Origin: a virus
Reading direction: 5' to 3' (one strand)
IMG/VR virus record: IMGVR_UViG_3300037258_000352
Coordinates: 32,001-96,000 of that record
DNA length: 64,000 bases
Position 1 is the first letter of the stretch, and each line of letters opens with the position of its first letter. This document shows, piece after piece, positions 4,719 through 57,315 of this stretch. The notes below the pieces were generated by a model that worked only from the letters and a program-made list of their open reading frames with translations, was not told the origin of the DNA and ran no database searches. A program made the position numbers and the translations under genes.

Positions 4719-4765
4719 TGTGCTGTCCTCCGTGTCTGGTAGGTCTCCGCTGACCTACACCCGGT

Positions 4766-4793
4766 GTATCGCCGGTCGGGTCCGGTCCGTTAC
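4766..4793 (-). promoter_or_regulatory. ECF (SigD-type) promoter GTAAC-N17-CGATAC
   Basis: Exact motif; -35 contains the TAA stop of the methyltransferase gene. Confidence 0.75.
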
Positions 4794-6169: not shown

Positions 6170-6197
6170 GTATCGCTGGCCGGGTCGGGTTCGTTAC
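6170..6197 (-). promoter_or_regulatory. ECF (SigD-type) promoter GTAAC-N17-CGATAC
   Basis: Exact motif upstream of the MTase unit. Confidence 0.75.
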
Positions 6198-9075: not shown

Positions 9076-9103
9076 TAATCGCGAGGGCCGGCCCGGGTGT
9101 TAC
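9076..9103 (-). promoter_or_regulatory. ECF promoter variant GTAAC-N17-CGATTA
   Basis: Motif variant with conserved spacing. Confidence 0.55.
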
Positions 9104-9686: not shown

Positions 9687-9714
9687 CTATCGCCGCCCGG
9701 GCGCGGTTCGTTAC
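9687..9714 (-). promoter_or_regulatory. ECF promoter GTAAC-N17-CGATAG
   Basis: Motif; -35 overlaps TAA stop at 9711. Confidence 0.7.
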
Positions 9715-10252: not shown

Positions 10253-10280
10253 GTATCGCTACCCGCCCCGCCGGTGTTAC
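10253..10280 (-). promoter_or_regulatory. ECF promoter GTAAC-N17-CGATAC
   Basis: Exact motif; -35 overlaps TAA stop at 10277. Confidence 0.75.
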
Positions 10281-11716: not shown

Positions 11717-11744
11717 GTATCGCCGCCCGGTGTGCGGGTGTTAC
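11717..11744 (-). promoter_or_regulatory. ECF promoter GTAAC-N17-CGATAC
   Basis: Exact motif; -35 overlaps TAA stop at 11741. Confidence 0.75.
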
Positions 11745-12469: not shown

Positions 12470-12540
12470 AGGGTAAACCTGGGTGGTCCCAGCGTCAACG
12501 CTTACAACCTGTGTATCGGCCGGGACCACCACCGCGTTAC
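12470..12540 (-). promoter_or_regulatory. Tandem promoter: ECF GTAAC-N17-CGATAC (12540-12513) followed by SigA TTGACG-N17-TACCCT (12498-12470)
   Basis: Both motifs present; near-copy at 20544-20613. Confidence 0.7.
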
Positions 12541-20543: not shown

Positions 20544-20613
20544 GTAACGCCGGCTGGGGTGTGGCCGATACAGGGGTGTAAGCGTTGACACCCGCACACC
20601 ACAGGTTTACTCT
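20544..20613 (+). promoter_or_regulatory. Tandem promoter: ECF GTAAC-N17-CGATAC (20544-20571) plus SigA TTGACA-N17-TACTCT (20585-20613)
   Basis: Exact motifs. Confidence 0.75.
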
Positions 20614-34579: not shown

Positions 34580-34607
34580 GTATCGCCGGGTCGGGCCCGG
34601 GTGTTAC
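34580..34607 (-). promoter_or_regulatory. ECF promoter GTAAC-N17-CGATAC
   Basis: Exact motif; -35 overlaps TAA stop at 34604. Confidence 0.75.
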
Positions 34608-34994: not shown

Positions 34995-35495
34995 TGGTGG
35001 GTTCCTGCGACTCGTGGTCGGGAACGGGGACGCTCCGGACCGGTCTCCCCCGCGTCATCCACAACCGGCCACTCCCCCAACACCACAAGCTCAACCTCAG
35101 TCACCCCGACCCGCAGATGCCCGACCCCCGTGACCGTGTTCCACCACCACCACTCCCGATCGTTCCCGACACCAACTAGCGCGCGGACAGCTTCCCGCTC
35201 CACTACACCAGCCGATCGGATCCGGGTCGTTAGCCCAGGGTCAGACAGTGAAACGCTCGCATGCCAAACTGGCTTGCCGTCGGATAAGCGCGCTCAACGG
35301 TCAACCGCGAGAATGATCGTGATCAGGTTCCCCCCTGGGATAATCCTGCGCTGGGTCAGCGGAGGTAGATCTTCTGGGTTGTTCGCCCGGTTCAGAGGAT
35401 GCTCAAGGGCATATCTCTGCTGGTCATCCATTACACACTCACTTTCTGGTTAATCGCCGAGTCGAACTTCCGGTTACCTTGCCGGTCCGGGCGGA

Positions 35496-36017: not shown

Positions 36018-36805
36018 GCCGGGACCTCCCCATCGGTGCCGGCGCGTTCCACCGCGGTGTAGTACACCGACAACTTGACCGGGGTCAGGTTCGGGCACGG
36101 TGGGTGCTCAACACCCCACGTCAGGAAGTAGCCGTCGGGGGTGTCGTGGAGCCCGAGGTGGTAGTACCGACCGTGGTCGACCCGGACGATGACCGGCTGG
36201 ACGTCGTAGGCGTCGAGGACCGGACCCAGCTTCGGGCGTTGACTGAGCAGCTCAAGGTCCGTACGCCACTGGGCACCCTTGCGACCCCGTTTCGGGATCA
36301 ACCATTCCCGTTCCAGGTTAGCTGACAGCCCTTCCGGGGCCTCCTGGCCGTCCGCGACGACGAACCCGAGACACTCCAGCTCGTAGCCCGCGCGGCGGTG
36401 CCACGTCGAGTCGACGCCCGGGTGGGCTTGTTTCCACGGGGTCATCACCTCGTCGTGGAACTGTTTGATCCGCGCGGACAGGGCCCGCAATGCCCCCGCG
36501 AGCTCGTCGCTCGCGCGGTAGGCGTACTTACTATTCGTGGTCATCGCTTCCTCGTTTCTGCGCTGCGGGAACTCGTCCCAGGGCCGGCTACGTGAACTCA
36601 AACAGGAGGGGGTGCCGTGACTTCGGTGGATCCACGACTCACCCTGGGACCGCACGATCACCGCGTCGGTGCAGTTCCGGCACACACCGACCAGCGCGTA
36701 CCCCACCCGCTCAGCCACGCGCGGGACCACACGCGCCACTGAAACGGGGATCGGATCAGCGGTGGTCCCGGCGATGGCGTGGGCGACTAGATCGCGGGTG
36801 CTCAT
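36014..36805 (-). CDS. Hypothetical protein (possible internal start 36544)
   Basis: Overlapping starts and stops in operon. Confidence 0.5.
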   Translation of the reverse strand: MSTRDLVAHAIAGTTADPIPVSVARVVPRVAERVGYALVGVCRNCTDAVIVRSQGESWIHRSHGTPSCLSSRSRPWDEFPQRRNEEAMTTNSKYAYRASDELAGALRALSARIKQFHDEVMTPWKQAHPGVDSTWHRRAGYELECLGFVVADGQEAPEGLSANLEREWLIPKRGRKGAQWRTDLELLSQRPKLGPVLDAYDVQPVIVRVDHGRYYHLGLHDTPDGYFLTWGVEHPPCPNLTPVKLSVYYTAVERAGTDGEVPA

Positions 36806-38181
36806 CGGGGGAACTCGTCCCAGGTTCGGCCGTCGAGGTCCCGGCCGCCGGCTTTAGGGGTCCGCCCGCCCCATTGTTTGAACAGGAACGGGACCCGCGC
36901 TGTCGTGGCCTGGTCCCGTAGCGCCCGGACCCAGTCCGGGTTCATCGGGCGGGTCACGGCACCCGACTCGCCCCCGACGATGACCCAGTCGATCCGGTGG
37001 CCGTAGGTGCCGGCGTGGGAGGACTTGCACTTGCAGTCGTCGACGCGGTCCACGAACCGGTTAGCGATCGAGCACCAGCCCTTATCGAGTCGCGGCGCGA
37101 GGGTCATGAACCGGTCGAGGTCCACCGCGGTCAGCAGCGGCTCACACGACAGGAAATGCACCGCGGCGGGGGTGTCCAGCAACGCGGGGATCCGAAGCTC
37201 GGCGCGCTGCTGGTCTTCGACGCTGACCCCCAACCAGACGCAGTCAAGTACCCGACGCTCACCCGGAGACGTAGGTCGGCCATGGATCGGCGTTGACCAT
37301 TGCCGTCCAGTGAGCACGTTGCGTACCTGCGTGTCGCTAACCGGGTAGTCCTTCGCGATCGAATAAGCCGATTCGCCGGCCTCGCCGCGTGATCGAATCG
37401 TCCCGACGTCGCGTTGAGTCAGCTTGGACCACGACTGCCCCGACCCGTGTTCGATGCGGTCCCCCCAGTTTGCGACCTGCGTCCCCCACTGCAAGTTCGA
37501 CCACCGGTTGTCGGCCGCGTCGCCATTGAGGTGCCGAGCCTGCTCATCTGCTCGGGGCGCCCGCGAGAACGCGTGAAGGACGGCCCGGTGCACGAGCACA
37601 GACTCACCTCTCCGCGGCGATCCCTCGCGGTGAAGACGGACCCGCATGTGCCCTTGTTCGCCTTCCTCCAGCCGCATCCCGGATCTCGTGTCGGCCCGCT
37701 TGCCGAGGATCTGGCCGCTGGTGGTGACGACGTATCCAGGGAAGCCGGGCACGGGCGCCTCCAGGTAAGGCTCCTCGATCTCCCCTGAGTACCAGCGGCG
37801 AACCCACGAACGCATCCGGCCGTGCCGTTTAGTTAGGATCTGATACCTGTGCTGCGGGGCGGCCCCCATTGACTGCCAGACACGGGCGATGAACTCGTCA
37901 GGAACGTCCTTATGAAACAAATCCGACATCGAATTGACGAATATCAGGCGGGGTTTTTTCCACCGCAACGGTATCGACAGGGCGTCGTCGTGGATCGTGA
38001 GCCCGAACCCGGGGCCGCTGGTCCGCGGGTCCCCATCGGTTTGGTATTTCGCCTGGCCCATCCCTTTGAGCCGGCCGGCCATGGTCAGGGCGTAGCAGTT
38101 GTCGCAACCGGGGGTCACGCGGTCGCATCCGGTGGTGGGGTTCCAGACCTTGTCGGCCCACTCGATCGCGGTGTCAGCCAC
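36802..38181 (-). CDS. Phage Gp37/Gp68 (DUF5131) protein with in-frame HNH endonuclease insertion
   Basis: IEWADKVWNPTTGC..GCDNCYA, FVNSMSDLFH, WLGVSVE, SCEPLL, WVIVGGESG, FKQWGG; insert VHRAV..RHLNGD..DN..SNL.WGT..N. Confidence 0.9.
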   Translation of the reverse strand: MADTAIEWADKVWNPTTGCDRVTPGCDNCYALTMAGRLKGMGQAKYQTDGDPRTSGPGFGLTIHDDALSIPLRWKKPRLIFVNSMSDLFHKDVPDEFIARVWQSMGAAPQHRYQILTKRHGRMRSWVRRWYSGEIEEPYLEAPVPGFPGYVVTTSGQILGKRADTRSGMRLEEGEQGHMRVRLHREGSPRRGESVLVHRAVLHAFSRAPRADEQARHLNGDAADNRWSNLQWGTQVANWGDRIEHGSGQSWSKLTQRDVGTIRSRGEAGESAYSIAKDYPVSDTQVRNVLTGRQWSTPIHGRPTSPGERRVLDCVWLGVSVEDQQRAELRIPALLDTPAAVHFLSCEPLLTAVDLDRFMTLAPRLDKGWCSIANRFVDRVDDCKCKSSHAGTYGHRIDWVIVGGESGAVTRPMNPDWVRALRDQATTARVPFLFKQWGGRTPKAGGRDLDGRTWDEFPR

Positions 38182-38348: not shown

Positions 38349-39389
38349 TCACGCATGGTCATCGGTGCCCGTCCCCGTCATCTCCTGCAGCATTGTGGAG
38401 CTCTTCGCGAGCTTCCGGGCGTTGTCCTCGGCGGTCCGGCACATCTCGGCGGTGATCCGCGGCTTGCCGTCTCTGTAGGTGTTCGCGATCCGGTACAGAG
38501 CAGCGGATGCGTAGTCGAGAATGGGGAACAGGTCCCGGTACACCGCGCGGTCGGCGTCGTTTCCACCAGCGACCGAGAGGGCGATGTCGCTACCGGGGTA
38601 CCAGTACCGATCCCGCGTCCGGTCGCGGTGCCACGTCGACGGGTCATCCCCGGTCACGTCGTGAACGTCGCGGTCGCAATACCAGTCGTACTGGTCGTGT
38701 TTCGTTCCACACTTCGGCGGGTCGGCGAGCTCGGTGTCGTCCTCGCACGGGGGCAGCGTGTGATACCGGCCTCGCTGGTCATCGGTGCGCTGAGCCAGCG
38801 GTGAGTCACCGTCTGTCCAGCGAATCCTGTAGGTAGAAGATGCGTGTTGCAGTGTGTGACGTTCCCCGCTCAACGGATGATGCAGCGTGTCGCAGTACAC
38901 GTCCCATTCTGGGTGCCTCGCTCGGCACCACGACGATGGACGTGATTCCGGCCCGTTCCATTCGTGGCCGCAATGCGCGCAGCGCAGCCACCCACCGATC
39001 AAGCGATCGTGGTATCGGCCGTCTTGGCGGCTCCACCGACACTCGGGACACGGCACTTCCTGTGGTTCCGCTGATGCCTGTGGTTGACCGAGATGGATGG
39101 GTCCGAGGGCGTCGTGGACGGTATGGGTGGCGTCGTCGCTGACCCACCATTCGAGCCCGAGCCCTGAGTTGCGGTGGTAGAGGTGACCGGTGCCGTGGGG
39201 GAGTTGGGTGCACCGGACGGTGTCCCGGTCGGGGTGTGGTTCTCCGCATTGCAGCGCCTCTACCGCTTGGCGCGCTAAGACCTGTCGCGTCTCCTCACTC
39301 AGAAGGACACCTGCGTAGTTGGCTTCGTCTGTGCTGTCATCCCACGCGTTTAGCACGCGTTGCACCTGATCGTCGGTGCTATCCATCAC
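38349..39389 (-). CDS. Hypothetical Cys/His-repeat protein
   Basis: Repeated C...H.....C.....H units; SigA promoter 39428-39456 and leader. Confidence 0.55.
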   Translation of the reverse strand: MMDSTDDQVQRVLNAWDDSTDEANYAGVLLSEETRQVLARQAVEALQCGEPHPDRDTVRCTQLPHGTGHLYHRNSGLGLEWWVSDDATHTVHDALGPIHLGQPQASAEPQEVPCPECRWSRQDGRYHDRLIGGWLRCAHCGHEWNGPESRPSSWCRARHPEWDVYCDTLHHPLSGERHTLQHASSTYRIRWTDGDSPLAQRTDDQRGRYHTLPPCEDDTELADPPKCGTKHDQYDWYCDRDVHDVTGDDPSTWHRDRTRDRYWYPGSDIALSVAGGNDADRAVYRDLFPILDYASAALYRIANTYRDGKPRITAEMCRTAEDNARKLAKSSTMLQEMTGTGTDDHA

Positions 39390-39459: not shown

Positions 39460-39726
39460 TCACCGGTGTCGCCACCGGATGATGTTCCGCATCCACTGCC
39501 GAAACCGGCGACGCCTACCCCGACCACCCGACCGGATCGCAGCCAGCGCCGTGTTGACGTCAACGAACTCCAGTATCGGTTCACGGTCCGCTGCTTCACG
39601 CCACCGCGCGAGGACCTCCACGACCTCCTCCGTGCCGGGATGACCACCCCGCGCGATCTCGTCGAGGAGCCGGTCGTCGGCGTGAACCGCAGTGAGGTCC
39701 ACCGGTGGCTCGTGCTCGTCATCCAT
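39460..39726 (-). CDS. RsdA-like anti-sigma-D factor sigma-binding domain, soluble and truncated
   Basis: PVDLTAVHADDRLLDEI..LARWREAADREPI.E.VD.NTALAAIR + Arg tract resembles RsdA N-terminus; no TM helix. Confidence 0.75.
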   Translation of the reverse strand: MDDEHEPPVDLTAVHADDRLLDEIARGGHPGTEEVVEVLARWREAADREPILEFVDVNTALAAIRSGGRGRRRRFRQWMRNIIRWRHR

Positions 39727-39937
39727 CGCTGCCCCGCTTGGACTGGACCACCGTGAGCTGAAACTCCGCGCCGTCGTCGCAGCGGATCACCAGGCCCGTG
39801 TTCGTCGTCATCATCAACTCGTGCTCGAAGGTGTTGACCTCTTTCAACTGGTCCAGGAACTCCTCATCGTCGTCGGTGACCCCGGTCCCGTTGGTGAGGA
39901 GCCCGATTAGGGTCCGCACCACCCCTTGCTCATTCAT
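39719..39937 (-). CDS. Hypothetical protein
   Basis: V.TFE...MT.N.GLVI..DGAEFQLTVV.S; leader motif. Confidence 0.7.
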   Translation of the reverse strand: MNEQGVVRTLIGLLTNGTGVTDDDEEFLDQLKEVNTFEHELMMTTNTGLVIRCDDGAEFQLTVVQSKRGSDG

Positions 39938-39985
39938 GTCGTCCTCCGTGTCGTCGAGGGCCCACCGCTGGGGCCGTACACCCAT

Positions 39986-40013
39986 GTATCGAGATCCTGG
40001 TCCTGAGCGTTAC
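39986..40013 (-). promoter_or_regulatory. ECF promoter GTAAC-N17-CGATAC driving the RsdA-like unit
   Basis: Exact motif. Confidence 0.75.
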
Positions 40014-40252: not shown

Positions 40253-41047
40253 TCATTTCGTGGCCTCCACGATCAGGGTGTGGATATCGGTCCCGACCGA
40301 TCGAAACGCCCCGACCGGTGCTTGCCGGAACGTGCCCCCGACCTCCTCGATCAGCGCCCGGGTCGCGGCGATGGGGCGTTGCCGCCCGTACCCCAGTGAG
40401 GGCGGCACGATCGCCCGTAGCTGCCCACCGGGGAGGAGCCGGTCCCACGCGAGGGCCAGGTGCTGCGCCCACGCGTACCGCTGCCCCGGCAGGGTAAACG
40501 GGGGGTTCATGACGACCGCGTCGAACCGGATCCCCGCCGGGCCCGCGAACTCCGCGTAGTCCTCCAGGGTGCCGTCCCACACGTGCATCCCCACCGGCCC
40601 GTTACGCCGTAGATAGGTCCTACGGACGGGGTCCGGTTCCACCGCAGTGATGTGGACCGCGAGGTACCGGTCCCGGATGGCGCGGACCAAGGCCCCGTCA
40701 CCAGCTGACGGTTCCAGCACCCGCGCCCCGGCGGGCAGGTCCAACCCGTCGACGAGCTCCGTAGCTAGTTCGGGTGGGGTCGGCCAGTAGGACATTTCCT
40801 TATCCCGGTACGCCGACGGGGGTGGTAGGACCGTGACCCCCGTCAGCGTCTGCAGGTCCGGGCGAGGGTCCCGCTGGTACACGAACGCTCGCTCCCGGGT
40901 GTCCCAGTGACCACCGCCGGCGAGCCGGGGCAGGACCTGGTGGACCTCGATGTAGGTGGTGCGGTCGGTGATGATGGGGGTGCGGATCGTGTTGTGGTCC
41001 GCGACCGCGCCGCACAGGACATCGTGCGCGGCCTGTGACAAAGTCAT
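40253..41047 (-). CDS. SAM-dependent (probably adenine DNA) methyltransferase
   Basis: PTP, VLEPSAGDG, VMNPPF. Confidence 0.85.
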   Translation of the reverse strand: MTLSQAAHDVLCGAVADHNTIRTPIITDRTTYIEVHQVLPRLAGGGHWDTRERAFVYQRDPRPDLQTLTGVTVLPPPSAYRDKEMSYWPTPPELATELVDGLDLPAGARVLEPSAGDGALVRAIRDRYLAVHITAVEPDPVRRTYLRRNGPVGMHVWDGTLEDYAEFAGPAGIRFDAVVMNPPFTLPGQRYAWAQHLALAWDRLLPGGQLRAIVPPSLGYGRQRPIAATRALIEEVGGTFRQAPVGAFRSVGTDIHTLIVEATK

Positions 41048-42081
41048 CACGGAGTCACCTCCTGCGGGGTGTCGGTGAGCTCGTCGAGGTCGAGGGTGTC
41101 TTCGGGTGGTGTCGCCGGCTCGTGAGCGGTGATCTTGTCGACGGGGACCTTGTCGTTCCACGAGTAGTCCGTTTTGACGCTCACAGTCACTTTGTTGACC
41201 TTGACGACCTCACGCCATCCACCCCAGTACTTGATCAGGTCACCGGGTTTGATCACCGACAGGTCCACCGGGTTGAAACGCCCCGCCGCGATCTCACCGG
41301 CGAGGAACTCCTGCCAGTACCGGATCTGCTCATCCAAATACGCGACCCGGATCAGGACCTGCTCCCGGTGCGTTCCCGTCGCTGGGCCGTGCTCGAACAC
41401 GTACACCGGCTGGCGCTTACCGTCCAGTGAGCGGTTGGTGTACCCGTCGAGGGTCCGTTGGTCCCGCCGCCGGTCCGCTTCCAACGTCTTGAGCCGGCGC
41501 ATCACGGTCCCGTGGTTCTCCCGGTGCCGCATGTGGTTCGCTGCGGACTCCGCACCCTGCGCGGCGCGCGCTGCTTCCTCCCCGGCCTCGATCGACTTCC
41601 GTTGGTGACCGTCCATGCGCTTGAGGTCCCGGCGGTGACCCCGCTCGGAGTGGTGGCCCCGCAGGATCGGTTGACCCATGGGGATCCCGTCCGCGATTTC
41701 CTGCGCCGCAGCCCACCGCGAGTCGGCCTCACTCTGCTTCCGGGCGGCTTTCGCGGCGAGCGCGTCGGCCCGGTCATCCATGTGTTCGGCGCGGTCGGCT
41801 TCGGATTCCTCCATTGAACGGGGTGGGGCCTCGACCTCGATTTCCACCTCGAACCCAGCTTCGCGGAGCACGTCGGCGGTGGCCTCGAATAAACCAAGGT
41901 TCGGGGCCCGGTCGCGGGAGTGTGAGACGCCGATCATGCGGATCGACGGCATGTACCTCCATCCCCGGATCCGGAACGTGGCCTGAGCTGCTTTGATCGC
42001 TTCCCACGCCCCGTCGCCCTTACAGGTCCCGTCTAGCAGGGTGCCGTCGGCGGCGGTGTGCACGATCCGTAGCGCGCTCAC
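41047..42081 (-). CDS. DUF3560 domain protein
   Basis: IPMGQPILRGHHSERGHRRD. Confidence 0.85.
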   Translation of the reverse strand: MSALRIVHTAADGTLLDGTCKGDGAWEAIKAAQATFRIRGWRYMPSIRMIGVSHSRDRAPNLGLFEATADVLREAGFEVEIEVEAPPRSMEESEADRAEHMDDRADALAAKAARKQSEADSRWAAAQEIADGIPMGQPILRGHHSERGHRRDLKRMDGHQRKSIEAGEEAARAAQGAESAANHMRHRENHGTVMRRLKTLEADRRRDQRTLDGYTNRSLDGKRQPVYVFEHGPATGTHREQVLIRVAYLDEQIRYWQEFLAGEIAAGRFNPVDLSVIKPGDLIKYWGGWREVVKVNKVTVSVKTDYSWNDKVPVDKITAHEPATPPEDTLDLDELTDTPQEVTP

Positions 42082-42451: not shown

Positions 42452-42479
42452 GTATCGCTGACCACCGACGGGGTGTTAC
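42452..42479 (-). promoter_or_regulatory. ECF promoter GTAAC-N17-CGATAC
   Basis: Exact motif followed by hairpin leader. Confidence 0.75.
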
Positions 42480-44297: not shown

Positions 44298-44325
44298 GTA
44301 TCGGCGCTCACTCTCTGGGCGTTAC
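44298..44325 (-). promoter_or_regulatory. ECF promoter GTAAC-N17-CGATAC
   Basis: Exact motif; -35 overlaps TAA stop at 44322. Confidence 0.75.
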
Positions 44326-49754: not shown

Positions 49755-50513
49755 TCACCCGACGCCACCGAACGTGAGGACACCCTGCGACAGTCGGGCT
49801 GTCACCGCCCGTTCACACTGCGCTTCCCGCTTCTCGAACCCGATCGCACGCCGGCCCGTCGCTCGAGCTGCGACCAGCGTGGAGCAGCTACCAGCGAAGC
49901 AATCAAGGATCAGACCACCCAGTGGACAGCCGTATTCAATCAGAGGCTCAAGGATCCCCCGTGGCTTCTCAGTCTCGTTAATAGCGGTGCCGTGCATGGA
50001 TCGTGAGTAGATGACCGAGCCCATCATGCGAGGACCACCGTTGTGACTCACATAGGAACCAGAGTCGATGTGCCCGGTGTGGGCCGGTTGTGCCTTGCGA
50101 CGGACCTGCTTCTTGACTGCATCCTGCGTCGTTGGGGCGAGATGGTGAACGTCCGACCACGGACCTCGGTACCAGTGCGTTGCGTGCTCATGCATTCGCC
50201 GGAATCGGTCAGCGTGGAACGTTGACCCGTTGTGCTTCTCCCACACCACGTCCTGCGAGAACTTCCAGCCCGTGAACTCATCCCGCCTATCGAGGAACAT
50301 CCGCATCGACCCGAAACACCACATCGAGTTCCCCGGGATCAGCGACGGCCACCCAGCGGGCCACCGGTCCCAATCCAGACTCGTCTCCCCGTACGGGGGA
50401 TCACACACGGTGAGGTCCGGGACGATCCCCAACTCGGGGAGGATGTCCCGGAAGTCCCCGCAGTACAACGTGACCTCGTCGTCGGCGTAGTAGGGCTCCG
50501 GGCGGGTCACCAT
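49755..50513 (-). CDS. DNA N4-cytosine/N6-adenine methyltransferase
   Basis: DPPY, TEKP, ILDCFAGS.ST. Confidence 0.9.
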   Translation of the reverse strand: MVTRPEPYYADDEVTLYCGDFRDILPELGIVPDLTVCDPPYGETSLDWDRWPAGWPSLIPGNSMWCFGSMRMFLDRRDEFTGWKFSQDVVWEKHNGSTFHADRFRRMHEHATHWYRGPWSDVHHLAPTTQDAVKKQVRRKAQPAHTGHIDSGSYVSHNGGPRMMGSVIYSRSMHGTAINETEKPRGILEPLIEYGCPLGGLILDCFAGSCSTLVAARATGRRAIGFEKREAQCERAVTARLSQGVLTFGGVG

Positions 50514-52900
50514 GGTTGCCCGATCCCTATCCGGGCGTACTTCCCCACGAACGACAGCCGCACGTCCCCCGTCGGCCCGTTCCTATGTTTGTCGACGATC
50601 ACCGTGATGTCCTGCGGTTCGTCATCACGACGCCACAGCAACAGGATCTTCGACGCGTTGTGACCCACCGCGCGGGACTCCCGCAGGTCCTCCTTCGTTG
50701 GCCGGCCACCGATCCGTTTCGTCGGCTCCGAGTTGAGCTGATGCAACACCACGATCGGGCACCCGAGCTGCTTCGCGAGCTCCTTAAGCTCCCACGACAA
50801 CCGCGACAACTGCTCCTGCCGGGACACCTTCGGATCCGCCGGCGACATCAACGACAACTGATCCACCACCACCAACCCCGGGTGCCCCAACTGCTGACAC
50901 CGCGCCCGGATCTGCGCCACAGACAACCCGGGGGTGTCATCCACCCACAAGGGCCACTCCTGAATCCGCTCCGCAGCTTTCTTCGCCCGGTACTGATCTT
51001 CCGGTCCGAGCTGGTGTTCCATCAGATCCGACAGGGGGACGGTGCCAACGTCCGCGACCCACCGGGCCATGACCTCATCCGTCGTCATTTCCAGGGTGAA
51101 CATCACCGTCCGGACCCCGTCTTGGGCCGCGGCCCGCGCGATCGACCCCCCGAACAGGGAGTTGTGCGTAGGGATCATCGTCGGCCCTGCGAGGTAGAGG
51201 TGATCACTGTTGTCGACCTCGATACACCGCACGGGGACGCTTGCCACTGGCCGGACCGCGCGAATCATCCTGCGGGATGACCGCTGTGGGGCTCTCTGCC
51301 GCTCTACTTTCCTGGTTAGTTTGAAGACTTTGTCTCCGGGCGTAAAATTGATCATGTAGCAGGTTGAGGACTTCTCCGTCCTGCCTTTGACCCGTTTGGT
51401 TCGCATGGTGGCTCGGTACCCAAGACTCAGGATCAGTTCTAGAGTTCCCTCGGCCAGCACCTTGCTGGTGACAGCGAACTGGACCTTTCCTAGTTTGCAG
51501 ACATACCCGTCGGTGTCTAGTAGCCCGGCTAGTAGCTCCCGGCGTTGTCCTACAGACGCCCGCAGGTAGGCGACCGGAATGTGTTTGTTCATCACTAAAC
51601 CGGCGCGCCTTAGATCTGTGATCAGTCCATAGACTGTCCTATGGGGACACGTCCTCACTGCTTTCCCGATGGGTGGCCCTACTTCATAACCGCAGAACGA
51701 GATGTTGTCGAACACTTCTGGATCAGCGCCGCACATCGTCCCATGCAAGGAATCACCGTCTCCGAGCCAGCAACCCAACACATAAGGATCTATCGGGAGA
51801 TCTTCCGACTCGGGTAACTCCAACGGAGCTGCCAGCTTGACCGAGTGGTTGACGTATGTCCCGAATCGGAGCGTCGCCATGATCTGCTCCGTCGTCACCA
51901 CTGAGGGATGGATCTGCTTCCACCGCTGGTCGATGGAATAAGGGGAGGTCCTGGCCAGGGTGTTATCAACGTGGGTGCATCGTGAAGATCGTGTCTCCGT
52001 CAGCCACTGGTGATCTGCGTCCGCTACGAGCACTGATCCGTCAGAGAACTCCACCTCATAGCAGGGACGACCCGTCATCACCGGGGTCGCGTTCGTGACC
52101 GTGGTCGGTTTGCCGTCCGCTCCGAACACTTGGTCGCCTACCTGAACCGTGCCCATGGTCGTCCAACCTGTCGGCGTGGCCAGGGGCGTATCCAGAGCGA
52201 GAGCCTTCCCGACGCTGGTGTTGGCTGCGACGACGATCAGCTCACCGATCCGCAACCCCCCGGAGAGTTGCTCATCGAGCGCTGGCCACGACGTTTTCAC
52301 GACCCCCACCGGAGGCCGGTCCAACGACTCAATGAACGACCACACCGCCGGCTCCGCATGCACCAGCGTCTGCGACTGGTCCCGGGACGTGGTGGCGTCG
52401 GTGAACTCCCGGCGCGCGAAGTCCAACACCTCATCCAGCGACGCGCCTTTCGACCCGTGCTCCGCGAGTTGAGTGATCCGCAAACCGGCCTCCCGGACCC
52501 GCCGCAGCACAGCTTTCGCGGCGACGATCTCCGCGTAGTAGGTGACGTTCGCGGCGGTGGGAGTGGCTTGCATCAGGGTGTGCAGGTACGGGCCGCCCCC
52601 CACCCGCAGGAGCTCACCACGCCGGTCCAACTCCTCCGACACGGTCACAGGGTCCGCGGGTTCCCCGCCCGCCCACAACGCCGTCACAGCAGCCCAGATT
52701 TGGCTGTGACCGGGCCGGTAGAAGTCTTCCGGGGTCAACACCCCGGCGACGTCGTCCAACGCCCTAAACGACACCAGAACCGACCCGAGGACCGCTTGCT
52801 CCGCGTGGAGGTCCTGCGGTGGCTGGTTGTCCAGCTCGGGTTCGCCCTCCTCGCTCGGGGCGTCGTCCCATCCGGAGGTGTCAGCGGACACCGGGAACAC
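50507..52900 (-). CDS. dnaB: Replicative helicase DnaB with intein
   Basis: PPQDLHAEQAVLG, DFYRPGH, SVGK|..|S Walker A, LEM, VVDQL, DLRES, KHRNGPTG. Confidence 0.95.
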   Translation of the reverse strand: MFPVSADTSGWDDAPSEEGEPELDNQPPQDLHAEQAVLGSVLVSFRALDDVAGVLTPEDFYRPGHSQIWAAVTALWAGGEPADPVTVSEELDRRGELLRVGGGPYLHTLMQATPTAANVTYYAEIVAAKAVLRRVREAGLRITQLAEHGSKGASLDEVLDFARREFTDATTSRDQSQTLVHAEPAVWSFIESLDRPPVGVVKTSWPALDEQLSGGLRIGELIVVAANTSVGKALALDTPLATPTGWTTMGTVQVGDQVFGADGKPTTVTNATPVMTGRPCYEVEFSDGSVLVADADHQWLTETRSSRCTHVDNTLARTSPYSIDQRWKQIHPSVVTTEQIMATLRFGTYVNHSVKLAAPLELPESEDLPIDPYVLGCWLGDGDSLHGTMCGADPEVFDNISFCGYEVGPPIGKAVRTCPHRTVYGLITDLRRAGLVMNKHIPVAYLRASVGQRRELLAGLLDTDGYVCKLGKVQFAVTSKVLAEGTLELILSLGYRATMRTKRVKGRTEKSSTCYMINFTPGDKVFKLTRKVERQRAPQRSSRRMIRAVRPVASVPVRCIEVDNSDHLYLAGPTMIPTHNSLFGGSIARAAAQDGVRTVMFTLEMTTDEVMARWVADVGTVPLSDLMEHQLGPEDQYRAKKAAERIQEWPLWVDDTPGLSVAQIRARCQQLGHPGLVVVDQLSLMSPADPKVSRQEQLSRLSWELKELAKQLGCPIVVLHQLNSEPTKRIGGRPTKEDLRESRAVGHNASKILLLWRRDDEPQDITVIVDKHRNGPTGDVRLSFVGKYARIGIGQPW
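51161..52204 (-). mobile_element. Class 3 intein (348 aa) with LAGLIDADG endonuclease
   Basis: Ala1 ALALDTP, HQW, LGCWLGDG, LAGLLDTDG, VRCIEVD, PTHN|S. Confidence 0.92.
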
Positions 52901-53551: not shown

Positions 53552-54490
53552 TCAGTAGTTCATCGGCGCGTCATACGCGTCGTCCGCGAGGTGCTCGAAA
53601 TGCCGCGCGTAACCTCCGCTACCCCGCCTATCGCTGCCCGAGCGCCCAGCGTTACCGACCGTGGCCGGCTCGTCCTCCCACCGCTGCCCGTTGAGCCACG
53701 TCGTCGCGTGCGCCACGTAGGACCCCGTCCGGTGCAGCTCCACGACGTACCGATCCAACCCAGCCATGATCACATCCGGGTCGGCTGCCTTGATCGCTTT
53801 CGGCCACGCCTTCCACGCGTCCTTCTTGGCCGTCTTTCGGGGGTAAACCGCCCAGAACTTGGCGAAGGTTTCCTCGGCTTTGCGGTTGATCGGGACAACC
53901 GGCCTAGACGAGGTCGGTGAGGGCATCCCGTCCAGCGTTCCCTGTCCGTCCTGGCTGGGGTTGGCCTGCGCCGCGCGCGCGGGTGCGCCTACGCGTGTGT
54001 GCGCCCGCGCCCGTGGAGAGATGATCTCTTCGTTAGAAGAGATCAAGGGGTTAGTGGTCGGTTCCACTGGTCGGTTAACTTCAAAAGAGTCTTTGGCCGG
54101 CTCAGCAGGTGAGCCGGGGGGGGCCTGCAGGTGAGCCGGGGGGGGCTCAGGGATGGACCGGGGGGGGCTCACCTTTGGTGGGAGCGTCGAAATGTGGAAG
54201 TTCCACCCGGCGAGCCCCCCGTCACTTCTGGTCCGGGCGGTCTTCGCGACGACGTTGATCTCTTCCAGTTTCACCATCGCTCGTTTGTAGGAGGAGACGC
54301 TGAGGCCGGCTCGTTCAGCGACCGCTTCTCGGCTGGGGAAGCAGTCACCGCCGCTGTCGGCGAAGCTGCGGAGCGCGATGTAGACGCGGAGACTGGCGCC
54401 GTCGAGGTCGTATTGGAGTAGCCAGATCGGGATGATCGAGTACGGGCCGATGTCTGTGGTGACCCGGGAGTTCTCTTGCTGTTCGCTCAT
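53552..54490 (-). CDS. Phage replication initiator (N-terminal HTH, C-terminal FW..YPRK domain)
   Basis: CFPSRE.VAE, FWAVYPRK..K..A.KAW, H.TTWLN..RWED. Confidence 0.85.
   Translation of the reverse strand: MSEQQENSRVTTDIGPYSIIPIWLLQYDLDGASLRVYIALRSFADSGGDCFPSREAVAERAGLSVSSYKRAMVKLEEINVVAKTARTRSDGGLAGWNFHISTLPPKVSPPRSIPEPPPAHLQAPPGSPAEPAKDSFEVNRPVEPTTNPLISSNEEIISPRARAHTRVGAPARAAQANPSQDGQGTLDGMPSPTSSRPVVPINRKAEETFAKFWAVYPRKTAKKDAWKAWPKAIKAADPDVIMAGLDRYVVELHRTGSYVAHATTWLNGQRWEDEPATVGNAGRSGSDRRGSGGYARHFEHLADDAYDAPMNY
54105..54174. repeat. Iteron-like repeats inside initiator gene (putative origin)
   Basis: GCAGGTGAGCCG(7-8) twice, a third CCG(8), and an inverted GCTCACCT. Confidence 0.55.
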
Positions 54491-55303: not shown

Positions 55304-55954
55304 TCACGCCACCACCCCCACGTCCTCGTGGAGCCATGACGCAGCGTCGTCGGGGAGTAGCTGAGCGAGACGCCTGATCGCCCTGTGCTGCAGCGCTTTC
55401 ACGGCACCGTCGTTGCGGTTCAATGCCGCTGCGGTCTCCGTGACGGACAGGCCAGCGTAGAACCGTAGGCCGATGCAATCCCGCTGGTCTCTGGGTAGTT
55501 TCCGGAGACACGTCGTGAGGTGCTGGGCGTAGAACTTGGTCATGATCCGGCTGATGGCTTCGCCGGCGGTGTTTTCTTCCGCGTACCGTTCGGGGACTTT
55601 GTCGACGGTCCGGTCCCAGCGGTGTCTCGCTGATCGGACGTGGTCGAGGAGGAGGTTCCGGGCGATGGTGACGACCCACGCACCGAACTCTTTCCCGTTG
55701 CCACGGTCAGCGACGGATTGGATCCTCCGCAGTGCGCGGCACCACACTTCACCGGCCATTTGCTCGACGGTGGAGCGGTCGCGGTCGTCGAGCCGGTAGA
55801 GGAGGTACCGGTAGATCATCAGGTGGTGTCGTTCGTACAGGACGCTGAAAGCGTCGCGGCCTGTGTCGCCGCCCTGCTGGGCGAGGGTGACGAGTTCCCA
55901 GTCCCCGAGTGGGGCGTTGTCCAGTACGTTTACTGTCGATGGCTGAGCGGTCAT
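55304..55954 (-). CDS. ECF sigma factor, BldN-like
   Basis: RALRRI, FGAWVVTIARNL..DH..S, QRDC..LRF..GLSV.ETA..G.VKALQHRA.R.LA.LLP. Confidence 0.9.
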   Translation of the reverse strand: MTAQPSTVNVLDNAPLGDWELVTLAQQGGDTGRDAFSVLYERHHLMIYRYLLYRLDDRDRSTVEQMAGEVWCRALRRIQSVADRGNGKEFGAWVVTIARNLLLDHVRSARHRWDRTVDKVPERYAEENTAGEAISRIMTKFYAQHLTTCLRKLPRDQRDCIGLRFYAGLSVTETAAALNRNDGAVKALQHRAIRRLAQLLPDDAASWLHEDVGVVA

Positions 55955-57287: not shown

Positions 57288-57315
57288 ATATCGCCCGCGA
57301 AGTTTTGGACGTTAC
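57288..57315 (-). promoter_or_regulatory. ECF promoter GTAAC-N17-CGATAT heading the sigma/replication operon
   Basis: Motif variant in divergent intergenic region. Confidence 0.65.

Follow-up and report, generated by a model that had tools for sequence, protein, structure and literature searches.

A candidate soluble RsdA-type anti-sigma domain protein encoded behind a SigD-type promoter motif in a phage genome

The operon at 39460-40013 and its promoter motif

The DNA analyzed here, hereafter the window, is a stretch of 64,000 nucleotides that spans positions 32001-96000 of an IMG/VR virus record 104,286 bp long, which carries a 127-bp terminal overlap and has a completeness estimate of 100%. 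We take it for a soil actinophage; the listed sequencing runs are all soil metagenomes, and none is of RNA. Region 39460-40013 of the window holds, on the minus strand, two short genes headed by a promoter motif and a leader (Table 1). The stop of the 72-aa gene and the start of the 88-aa gene overlap by 8 nt (ATGGATGA); therefore the 88-aa gene is indeed the second behind the motif, and its start, as the sequence reads, is translationally coupled to the 72-aa gene. The next gene downstream, which encodes 345 aa, starts 73 nt past the 88-aa gene with a ribosome binding site (RBS) identical to that of the operon. Neither a sigma-70-type promoter nor an intrinsic terminator was found between the motif and the 88-aa gene, and the 345-aa gene is probably in the same transcript because no terminator precedes it. 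Directly upstream of the operon we observed genes for a DNA methyltransferase-like protein and a DUF3560 protein (40253-41050 and 41047-41952, both on the minus strand), and at 36802-38181 (minus strand) a gene for a DUF5131 (phage Gp37/Gp68) protein interrupted by an insert of about 200 aa that matches HNH_3 weakly. Outside the studied operons, genes were called with a crude script based on GC3, and the host was assigned from best hits only.

The motif that heads the operon, GTAAC-N17-CGATAC, can also be read as GTAACG-N16-CGATAC and is followed about 35 nt on by an RBS and a start codon on the same strand. A -35 element GTAAC(A/G), a spacer and a -10 element (C)GAT are all present, as in a putative promoter of the ECF40/SigD type. 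The phage motif equals the ECF40 consensus, 5'-GTAAC-N17-18-CGAT-3' (PMC12019637), and matches the SigD elements of C. glutamicum, -35 GTAAC(A/G) and -10 GAT (PMC6338062). In the window, GTAAC-N15-19-CGATA occurs 13 times versus 0.05 expected, a count that none of 100 shuffles reached. Over the 104-kb genome, CGAT stands at exactly N17 after 17 of the 106 GTAAC pentamers, and any other tetramer after four at most. Nearly every motif site faces a gene, with GACACGGAGG about 45 nt later. Thus the earlier note was right about the reading frame at 39460-39726, whose sequence agrees with the motifs quoted there, about its second place in the operon, and about the SigD-type promoter, since the motif is the ECF40/SigD consensus and its count is far above chance. 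In the leaders that follow most motif sites (e.g. 39959-39975 and 4730-4760) we also noticed a hairpin of variable stem with a conserved (A)GCGG-type loop, accompanied by the exact RBS GACACGGAGG; hairpin and RBS may constitute a shared post-transcriptional element of the regulon.

The same motif is abundant in the putative host lineage. GTAAC-N17-CGAT(A/G) was found 29 and 19 times in two Pseudonocardiaceae genomes, versus 4 and 3 in the reversed control; hence the likely host possesses a SigD-type regulon. A conserved copy of the motif is present at the sigD-rsdA loci of Pseudonocardiaceae: GTAACG-N17-CGATGA lies at the sigD 5' end in L011 (3398-3430) and at about 38 other such loci, with both elements and their spacing kept and the spacer diverging. 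Most plausibly, sigD starts at the ATG within CGATGA, which makes an odd promoter/start geometry, and since the motif overlaps this likely start, it is only an uncertain candidate for the sigD promoter. In Corynebacterium, rsdA has its own SigD-dependent promoter, PrsdA, so that SigD drives its own inhibitor (PMC6338062).

Table 1. Position of the operon, the sigma gene, the promoter motif sites and the membrane-anchored RsdA-like genes. Positions are those of the window unless a locus is named.
Feature	Position	Strand	Basis or remark
Gene for 88-aa soluble RsdA-type anti-sigma domain protein	39460..39726	-	Homology, no TM, predicted helices, contact residues
72-aa gene, first of the operon	39719..39937	-	ATG at 39937; no family match
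ECF40/SigD-type promoter motif heading the operon	39986..40013	-	GTAAC (40013-40009)-N17-CGATAC (39991-39986)
5' leader	39943..39975	-	Hairpin GGCCC-CAGCGGT-GGGCC (39975-39959), then extended RBS GACACGGAGG (39952-39943)
345-aa gene, next downstream	38349..39386	-	Zinc-ribbon matches weak only
216-aa ECF sigma of BldN-like clade, the phage's only sigma	55304..55954	-	Tree, profile, PDB match
Motif in front of the three-gene operon whose last gene encodes the sigma	57289..57315	-	
Motif site	4767..4793	-	
Motif site	6171..6197	-	
Motif site	9077..9103	-	CGATT variant
Motif site	9688..9714	-	
Motif site	10254..10280	-	
Motif site	11718..11744	-	
Motif site	12514..12540	-	
Motif site	20544..20570	+	
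Motif site	34581..34607	-	
Motif site	35452..35477	-	N16, CGATT variant
Motif site	42453..42479	-	
Motif site	44299..44325	-	
Motif site	53629..53655	-	CGATAG
Membrane-anchored RsdA-like gene, G006/G009 type	L058:1198-2424	+	
Membrane-anchored RsdA-like gene, G006/G009 type	L059:793-1863	-	

The 88-aa protein and its relatives

A search of the 88-aa protein against PF16751 (RsdA_SigD_bd) gave a match at E 4e-4 and 21 bits, below the cutoff of 26.7, that joins residues 10-50 to positions 1-46 of the 46 in the profile. Four relatives share 70-74% identity with it, and these together with the query all match PF16751 (5 of 5, best E 4.4e-8); the RsdA profile is thus recognized at the level of the family, with the 88-aa protein alone under the Pfam gathering score. 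When a profile of 28 short forms was compared with PDB, its sole match was 3vep_X, residues 1-80 of M. tuberculosis RsdA (E 2.1e-8). An exhaustive search of 1.8 billion representatives yielded 123 relatives, the nearest long ones being Pseudonocardiaceae proteins annotated as anti-sigma-D factor RsdA, with 49-57% identity over about 70 aa. No match to the 88-aa protein was found in PHROGs and NCBIfam, and a PDB search with its single sequence returned repeat-protein noise only.

Five residues of RsdA, namely L24, L43, L46, L47 and W50, contact region 4 of sigma-D, and the W50A substitution lowers the binding affinity 10-fold (Jaiswal et al., PMC3597663). These align with L21, V35, V38, L39 and W42 of the phage protein; within the short family W42 never varies, and L21 and L39 hardly ever do. 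Over residues 8-66 the profiles of 121 cellular transmembrane (TM) forms differ very little from those of 61 short forms (Jensen-Shannon divergence mostly <0.2), and no columns that discriminate between the two were found within the contact helices. The AF2 monomer shows four helices (12-25, 32-48, 57-66 and 72-87) with moderate confidence (pLDDT 67, pTM 0.28), as is expected when a domain acquires its fold on its partner; a Foldseek comparison of this model with PDB gave no match. Its sequence makes the 88-aa protein a homologue of the sigma-binding domain at the RsdA N-terminus.

What follows this domain in RsdA, the parts through which a cell frees SigD under envelope stress, is missing from the phage protein. 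In long relatives a strong TM segment lies some 100-130 residues from the N-terminus, and their maximal Kyte-Doolittle 19-mer value exceeds 2, versus 0.75 in the 88-aa protein. In the alignment, the Arg-rich stretch R69-R74 falls opposite RRxxRRR, the juxtamembrane segment of long forms, and in the place of the TM segment stands FRQWMRNIIRWRHR, a basic Arg/Trp-rich tail of 14 residues (75-88). The VAA degron of RsdA, which is recognized by ClpX, lies in the TM region and is exposed by intramembrane cleavage, and RsdA truncations without VAA resist ClpXP (PMC3597663). The phage protein ends in ...IIRWRHR rather than VAA, and it is therefore probably not a ClpXP substrate by that route. Since both the TM segment and the sensor are absent, it would also be blind to the envelope signal. 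The resemblance to RsdA proposed in the earlier note is accordingly upheld by the full-length PF16751 match and the family profile match to 3vep_X, and so is the uncoupling from membrane proteolysis, for which TM helix, sensor domain and VAA degron are all lacking. The same note had the protein end where the TM helix would begin: the helix is indeed absent, but the Arg/Trp tail occupies that place. Among the short forms, the last 24 residues have a net charge of +5 to +12 and include 1-5 aromatics; the amphipathicity of the tail is significant in some members only, and its sequence is poorly conserved, the best-conserved part being the sigma-binding domain.

The cellular forms and the short ones also differ in their neighbourhood. 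An ECF sigma gene lies immediately upstream of rsdA at 39 of the 41 genome loci from Pseudonocardiaceae and relatives. Similarly, among 79 metagenomic loci all long TM forms with upstream sequence present follow a sigma of the SigD clade, and these adjoining sigmas score 270-376 bits to SigD versus 50-67 to the phage sigma. The 88-aa gene has no adjacent sigD; the only sigma of the phage is encoded 15.6 kb away and belongs to another clade. About 60 distinct short TM-less forms with intact domains were recovered from soil metagenomes, and no sigma gene was found near them at any of the roughly 38 loci examined. The sequence GTAAC-N17-CGAT lies directly upstream of the short form at 7 of 38 loci (in L106 the ATG comes 9 nt past CGAT, which implies a near-leaderless transcript), and other genes are common to the phage and the short-form locus at 6 of 38. 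A DUF5131 homologue 74% identical to that of the phage accompanies the short RsdA-like gene of L124. This recurring context and promoter identify the short form as a derivative that recurs, apparently in association with phages, and keeps its promoter wiring. The close relatives (70-74% identity) keep the same length and all the key residues, and two short-form relatives sit on contigs of 107 and 103 kb. A tree of the ~70-residue domain is poorly resolved; the short forms cluster in it, which does not imply a single origin.

Megablast with the 8-kb region against 50,697 deposited phage records, as well as tblastn with the 88-aa protein and two family members against the same number of deposited phage genomes, returned no match. 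Scans of IMG/VR with the protein or the family alignments, and a first metagenome scan, revealed no relatives, and we found no paper in the searchable literature that links RsdA-type domains to phages. Of five genomes that were searched, one is unpublished, G004 (loci L003, L046 and L052); it contributes 1 of the 41 rsdA loci, 1 of the 5 BldN-like loci and rows of the tree, and no conclusion depends solely on it.

The phage sigma factor and the probable target

The sigma gene is the last of its three-gene operon, which heads a leftward replication block encoding an HTH protein, a DnaC-like loader, an intein-containing DnaB and a PD-(D/E)XK nuclease. The DnaB-type replicative helicase (50507-52483, minus strand) carries a LAGLIDADG/Hom_end insert at residues ~310-386 that looks like an intein. 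The sigma itself is 33-38% identical to rsdA-adjacent SigD and 40-50% to a different paralogue from the same genomes. In the tree it falls within the BldN-like group, parted from SigD by a long, well-supported branch, and its best solved relative is BldN (6dxo_A, E 2.6e-32). As it scores 129 bits with TIGR02952 (BldN), under the NCBIfam equivalog cutoff of 206, and takes the BldN side of the tree, we assign it to a BldN-like clade and not to the BldN equivalogs. Two insertions were noticed in it, one of 2 residues in a sigma-2 loop (residues ~80-90, DRGNGKE versus SYQGRD of cellular BldN-like sigmas), which may be the -10 specificity loop, and one of 4 residues before sigma-4 (residues ~135-140); both are absent from the sigmas of two 120-kb IMG/VR phages, which are 39-40% identical to it.

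In cellular genomes, the BldN-like gene is followed by an anti-sigma gene of the DUF5667/RsbN type, not of the RsdA type. A DUF5667/RsbN-type protein was found in none of the three phages with this sigma clade. Instead, all three complete phages of the clade, i.e. the one studied here (G000) and the two 120-kb phages (G006 and G009), carry an RsdA-type domain, together with 8-17 CGAT motif sites and 0-3 CGTT-type sites each. No second promoter class for the phage sigma was found: GTAAC-N15-18-CGTT occurs at 3 sites in the phage versus a roughly estimated 1.3, which is not significant. A sequence CGTAAC-N16/17-CGTTG is conserved just 3' of five BldN-like sigma genes (L044-L048), before the DUF5667 (RsbN-type) gene; it agrees with the BldN-dependent rsbN promoter published earlier and shows no genome-wide enrichment in the host. 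Concerning -10 specificity, a rule based on Ala60/Lys53 distinguishes GAT from GTT and assigns the A of GAT to the small Ala in SigD; the rule is weak because it stems from homology models and from a single promoter on which the effect was 1.7-fold. At this position host SigD has Ala, and the phage sigma has Arg, like BldN-like sigmas. At the positions that match the SigD pocket for W50 of RsdA, host SigD reads A, M, L, (R/I/V), V and V, and the phage sigma A, L, L, G, F and Y.

Our leading reading, which we hold at about even weight, is that the phage bears a cytoplasmic, signal-blind RsdA anti-sigma domain whose most likely target is host SigD, because the surface with which it would bind cannot be told apart from that of cellular RsdA. 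Taken singly, binding to host SigD appears reasonably probable; binding to the phage sigma, which does not exclude the former, is plausible to a lesser degree. The domain would have been captured from an actinomycete host, its closest relatives being from Pseudonocardiaceae, and would bind a SigD-type ECF sigma stoichiometrically with no apparent release mechanism. Sequestration of host SigD would silence the envelope-stress regulon and stop its competition for core RNA polymerase and, so far as SigD fires the SigD-type promoters of the phage, would exert a delayed negative feedback on them. There is negative feedback only if the target of the anti-sigma is the sigma that reads the motif promoters. 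The kept interface with no signature of retargeting, the SigD consensus of the promoters and the Ala rule speak for host SigD, and the co-inheritance of RsdA domain and sigma clade in all three complete phages speaks against it.

A sigma/anti-sigma pair of the phage's own would explain this co-inheritance no less well than a function directed at the host. The phage ECF sigma might itself read the 17 motif promoters, that of its own operon among them, and be titrated by the 88-aa protein in an autoregulated circuit split across 16 kb, which would set a threshold or end middle transcription and with which binding to host SigD is compatible. As no second promoter class is apparent, the phage sigma may read the GTAAC-N17-CGAT sites and be the real target: the sigma operon lies behind the motif, no other -10 element is over-represented after GTAAC, and a GTAAC -35 would suit the sigma-4 recognition helix. 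Moreover, the lack of matches to the three queries among the deposited phages indicates that the trait tracks the sigma-bearing group, in which the RsdA-type domain and the motif sites recur and RsbN-type proteins do not (0 of 3). Yet the sigma is distant from rsdA-adjacent SigD in identity and in the tree, its cellular orthologues pair with a different class of anti-sigma, no adaptive change is seen on the anti-sigma surface when it is compared with cellular RsdA, and the Ala/Lys rule predicts a CGTT-type -10 for it; the differences at the W50-pocket positions point the same way and are not decisive. We therefore regard the phage sigma as the principal target only tentatively, and as somewhat doubtful.

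The tail suggests another role, in which a sigma is bound but not mainly inhibited, the protein acting as a stabilising chaperone or its Arg/Trp tail tethering the sigma to membrane or nucleic acid; the tail may even be the seat of the main activity. Its character is kept in the short family in both charge and aromatics, it is predicted to be helical, and it stands at the juxtamembrane/TM position of the long forms; however, with amphipathicity significant in only some members, a poorly conserved tail sequence and a sigma-binding domain that is the best-conserved part, we find this role improbable. Truncation relative to cellular RsdA and a score under the Pfam cutoff could likewise be those of a functionless, decaying remnant of a captured rsdA, but relatives at 70-74% identity retain the length and all key residues, some 60 distinct short forms have intact domains, the start codon is coupled in translation to the preceding gene, and the dedicated promoter recurs at other loci, which leaves decay a very slight chance.

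If host SigD is the target, as we favour, a more elaborate scheme can be drawn, though we think it unlikely as a whole: a sigma cascade assembled from two ECF modules that were taken from the host, in which the stress alarm of the host serves as the ignition of the phage. Envelope stress induced by infection would free host SigD, which would fire the 17 phage promoters, including those of the BldN-type sigma operon and of the soluble anti-SigD gene. The non-releasable anti-SigD, a decapitated host anti-sigma working as an off-switch, would then end the SigD-dependent phase, and core polymerase would be handed to the phage sigma. In any case, a captured ECF anti-sigma domain, shorn of its signal-responsive parts, appears wired into a dense phage regulon of the ECF type, and no counterpart of it was found in the 50,697 deposited phage genomes (three tblastn queries) or in the literature searched, with several relatives on phage-like contigs. 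Should it bind host SigD, actinomycete phages would disarm or exploit a conserved envelope-stress pathway, one on which the make-up of the envelope and the susceptibility to drugs also depend in mycobacteria and corynebacteria, and the protein would offer research a ready-made, minimal and non-degradable SigD inhibitor. Should it bind the phage sigma, the pair would represent a split, transferable sigma/anti-sigma timer.

Comparison with known anti-sigma systems

The closest known system is RsdA of Mycobacteriales and other actinomycetes (Rv3413c, cg0697; PF16751; 3VEP), whose N-terminal sigma-binding domain is homologous to the phage protein and has the same contact residues, the Trp included. 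The wiring of the 88-aa gene mirrors that of PrsdA, the SigD-type promoter of Corynebacterium (PMC6338062). However, RsdA is a protein of about 300-400 aa with a TM segment, an extracytoplasmic domain and a VAA degron, whereas the phage protein has 88 aa and none of the three; cellular rsdA adjoins sigD, whereas the 88-aa gene is phage-encoded with no sigD adjacent. The two 120-kb phages G006 and G009 also possess an RsdA-type domain (E 1e-13 to 4e-14), a related sigma of the BldN clade and the same motif, but their RsdA-like proteins keep the TM segment and a C-terminal domain of about 200 aa, and the genes for these have no motif directly upstream. The extracytoplasmic domain of about 200 aa in L058 and L059 contains ELDH..PL.LGGSND..N.W, which is reminiscent of HNH/His-Me nucleases and has no Pfam match. 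The RsbN-BldN pair of Streptomyces (6DXO) is related through its sigma, as BldN is the nearest solved relative of the phage sigma and cellular orthologues of the latter adjoin a DUF5667/RsbN-type gene; in contrast, the phage has no RsbN-type protein and the 88-aa protein does not match that neighbour.

Among phage proteins, T4 AsiA is an anti-sigma factor directed against region 4 of sigma-70. To our knowledge, the phage anti-sigma factors described so far target the housekeeping sigma and are phage inventions. The 88-aa protein appears instead to be a captured cellular ECF anti-sigma domain, with no homology seen to factors of the AsiA type. In spite of this difference, it is, like them, a small soluble phage protein, and by analogy it would be expected to act on sigma region 4 and to time or redirect transcription.
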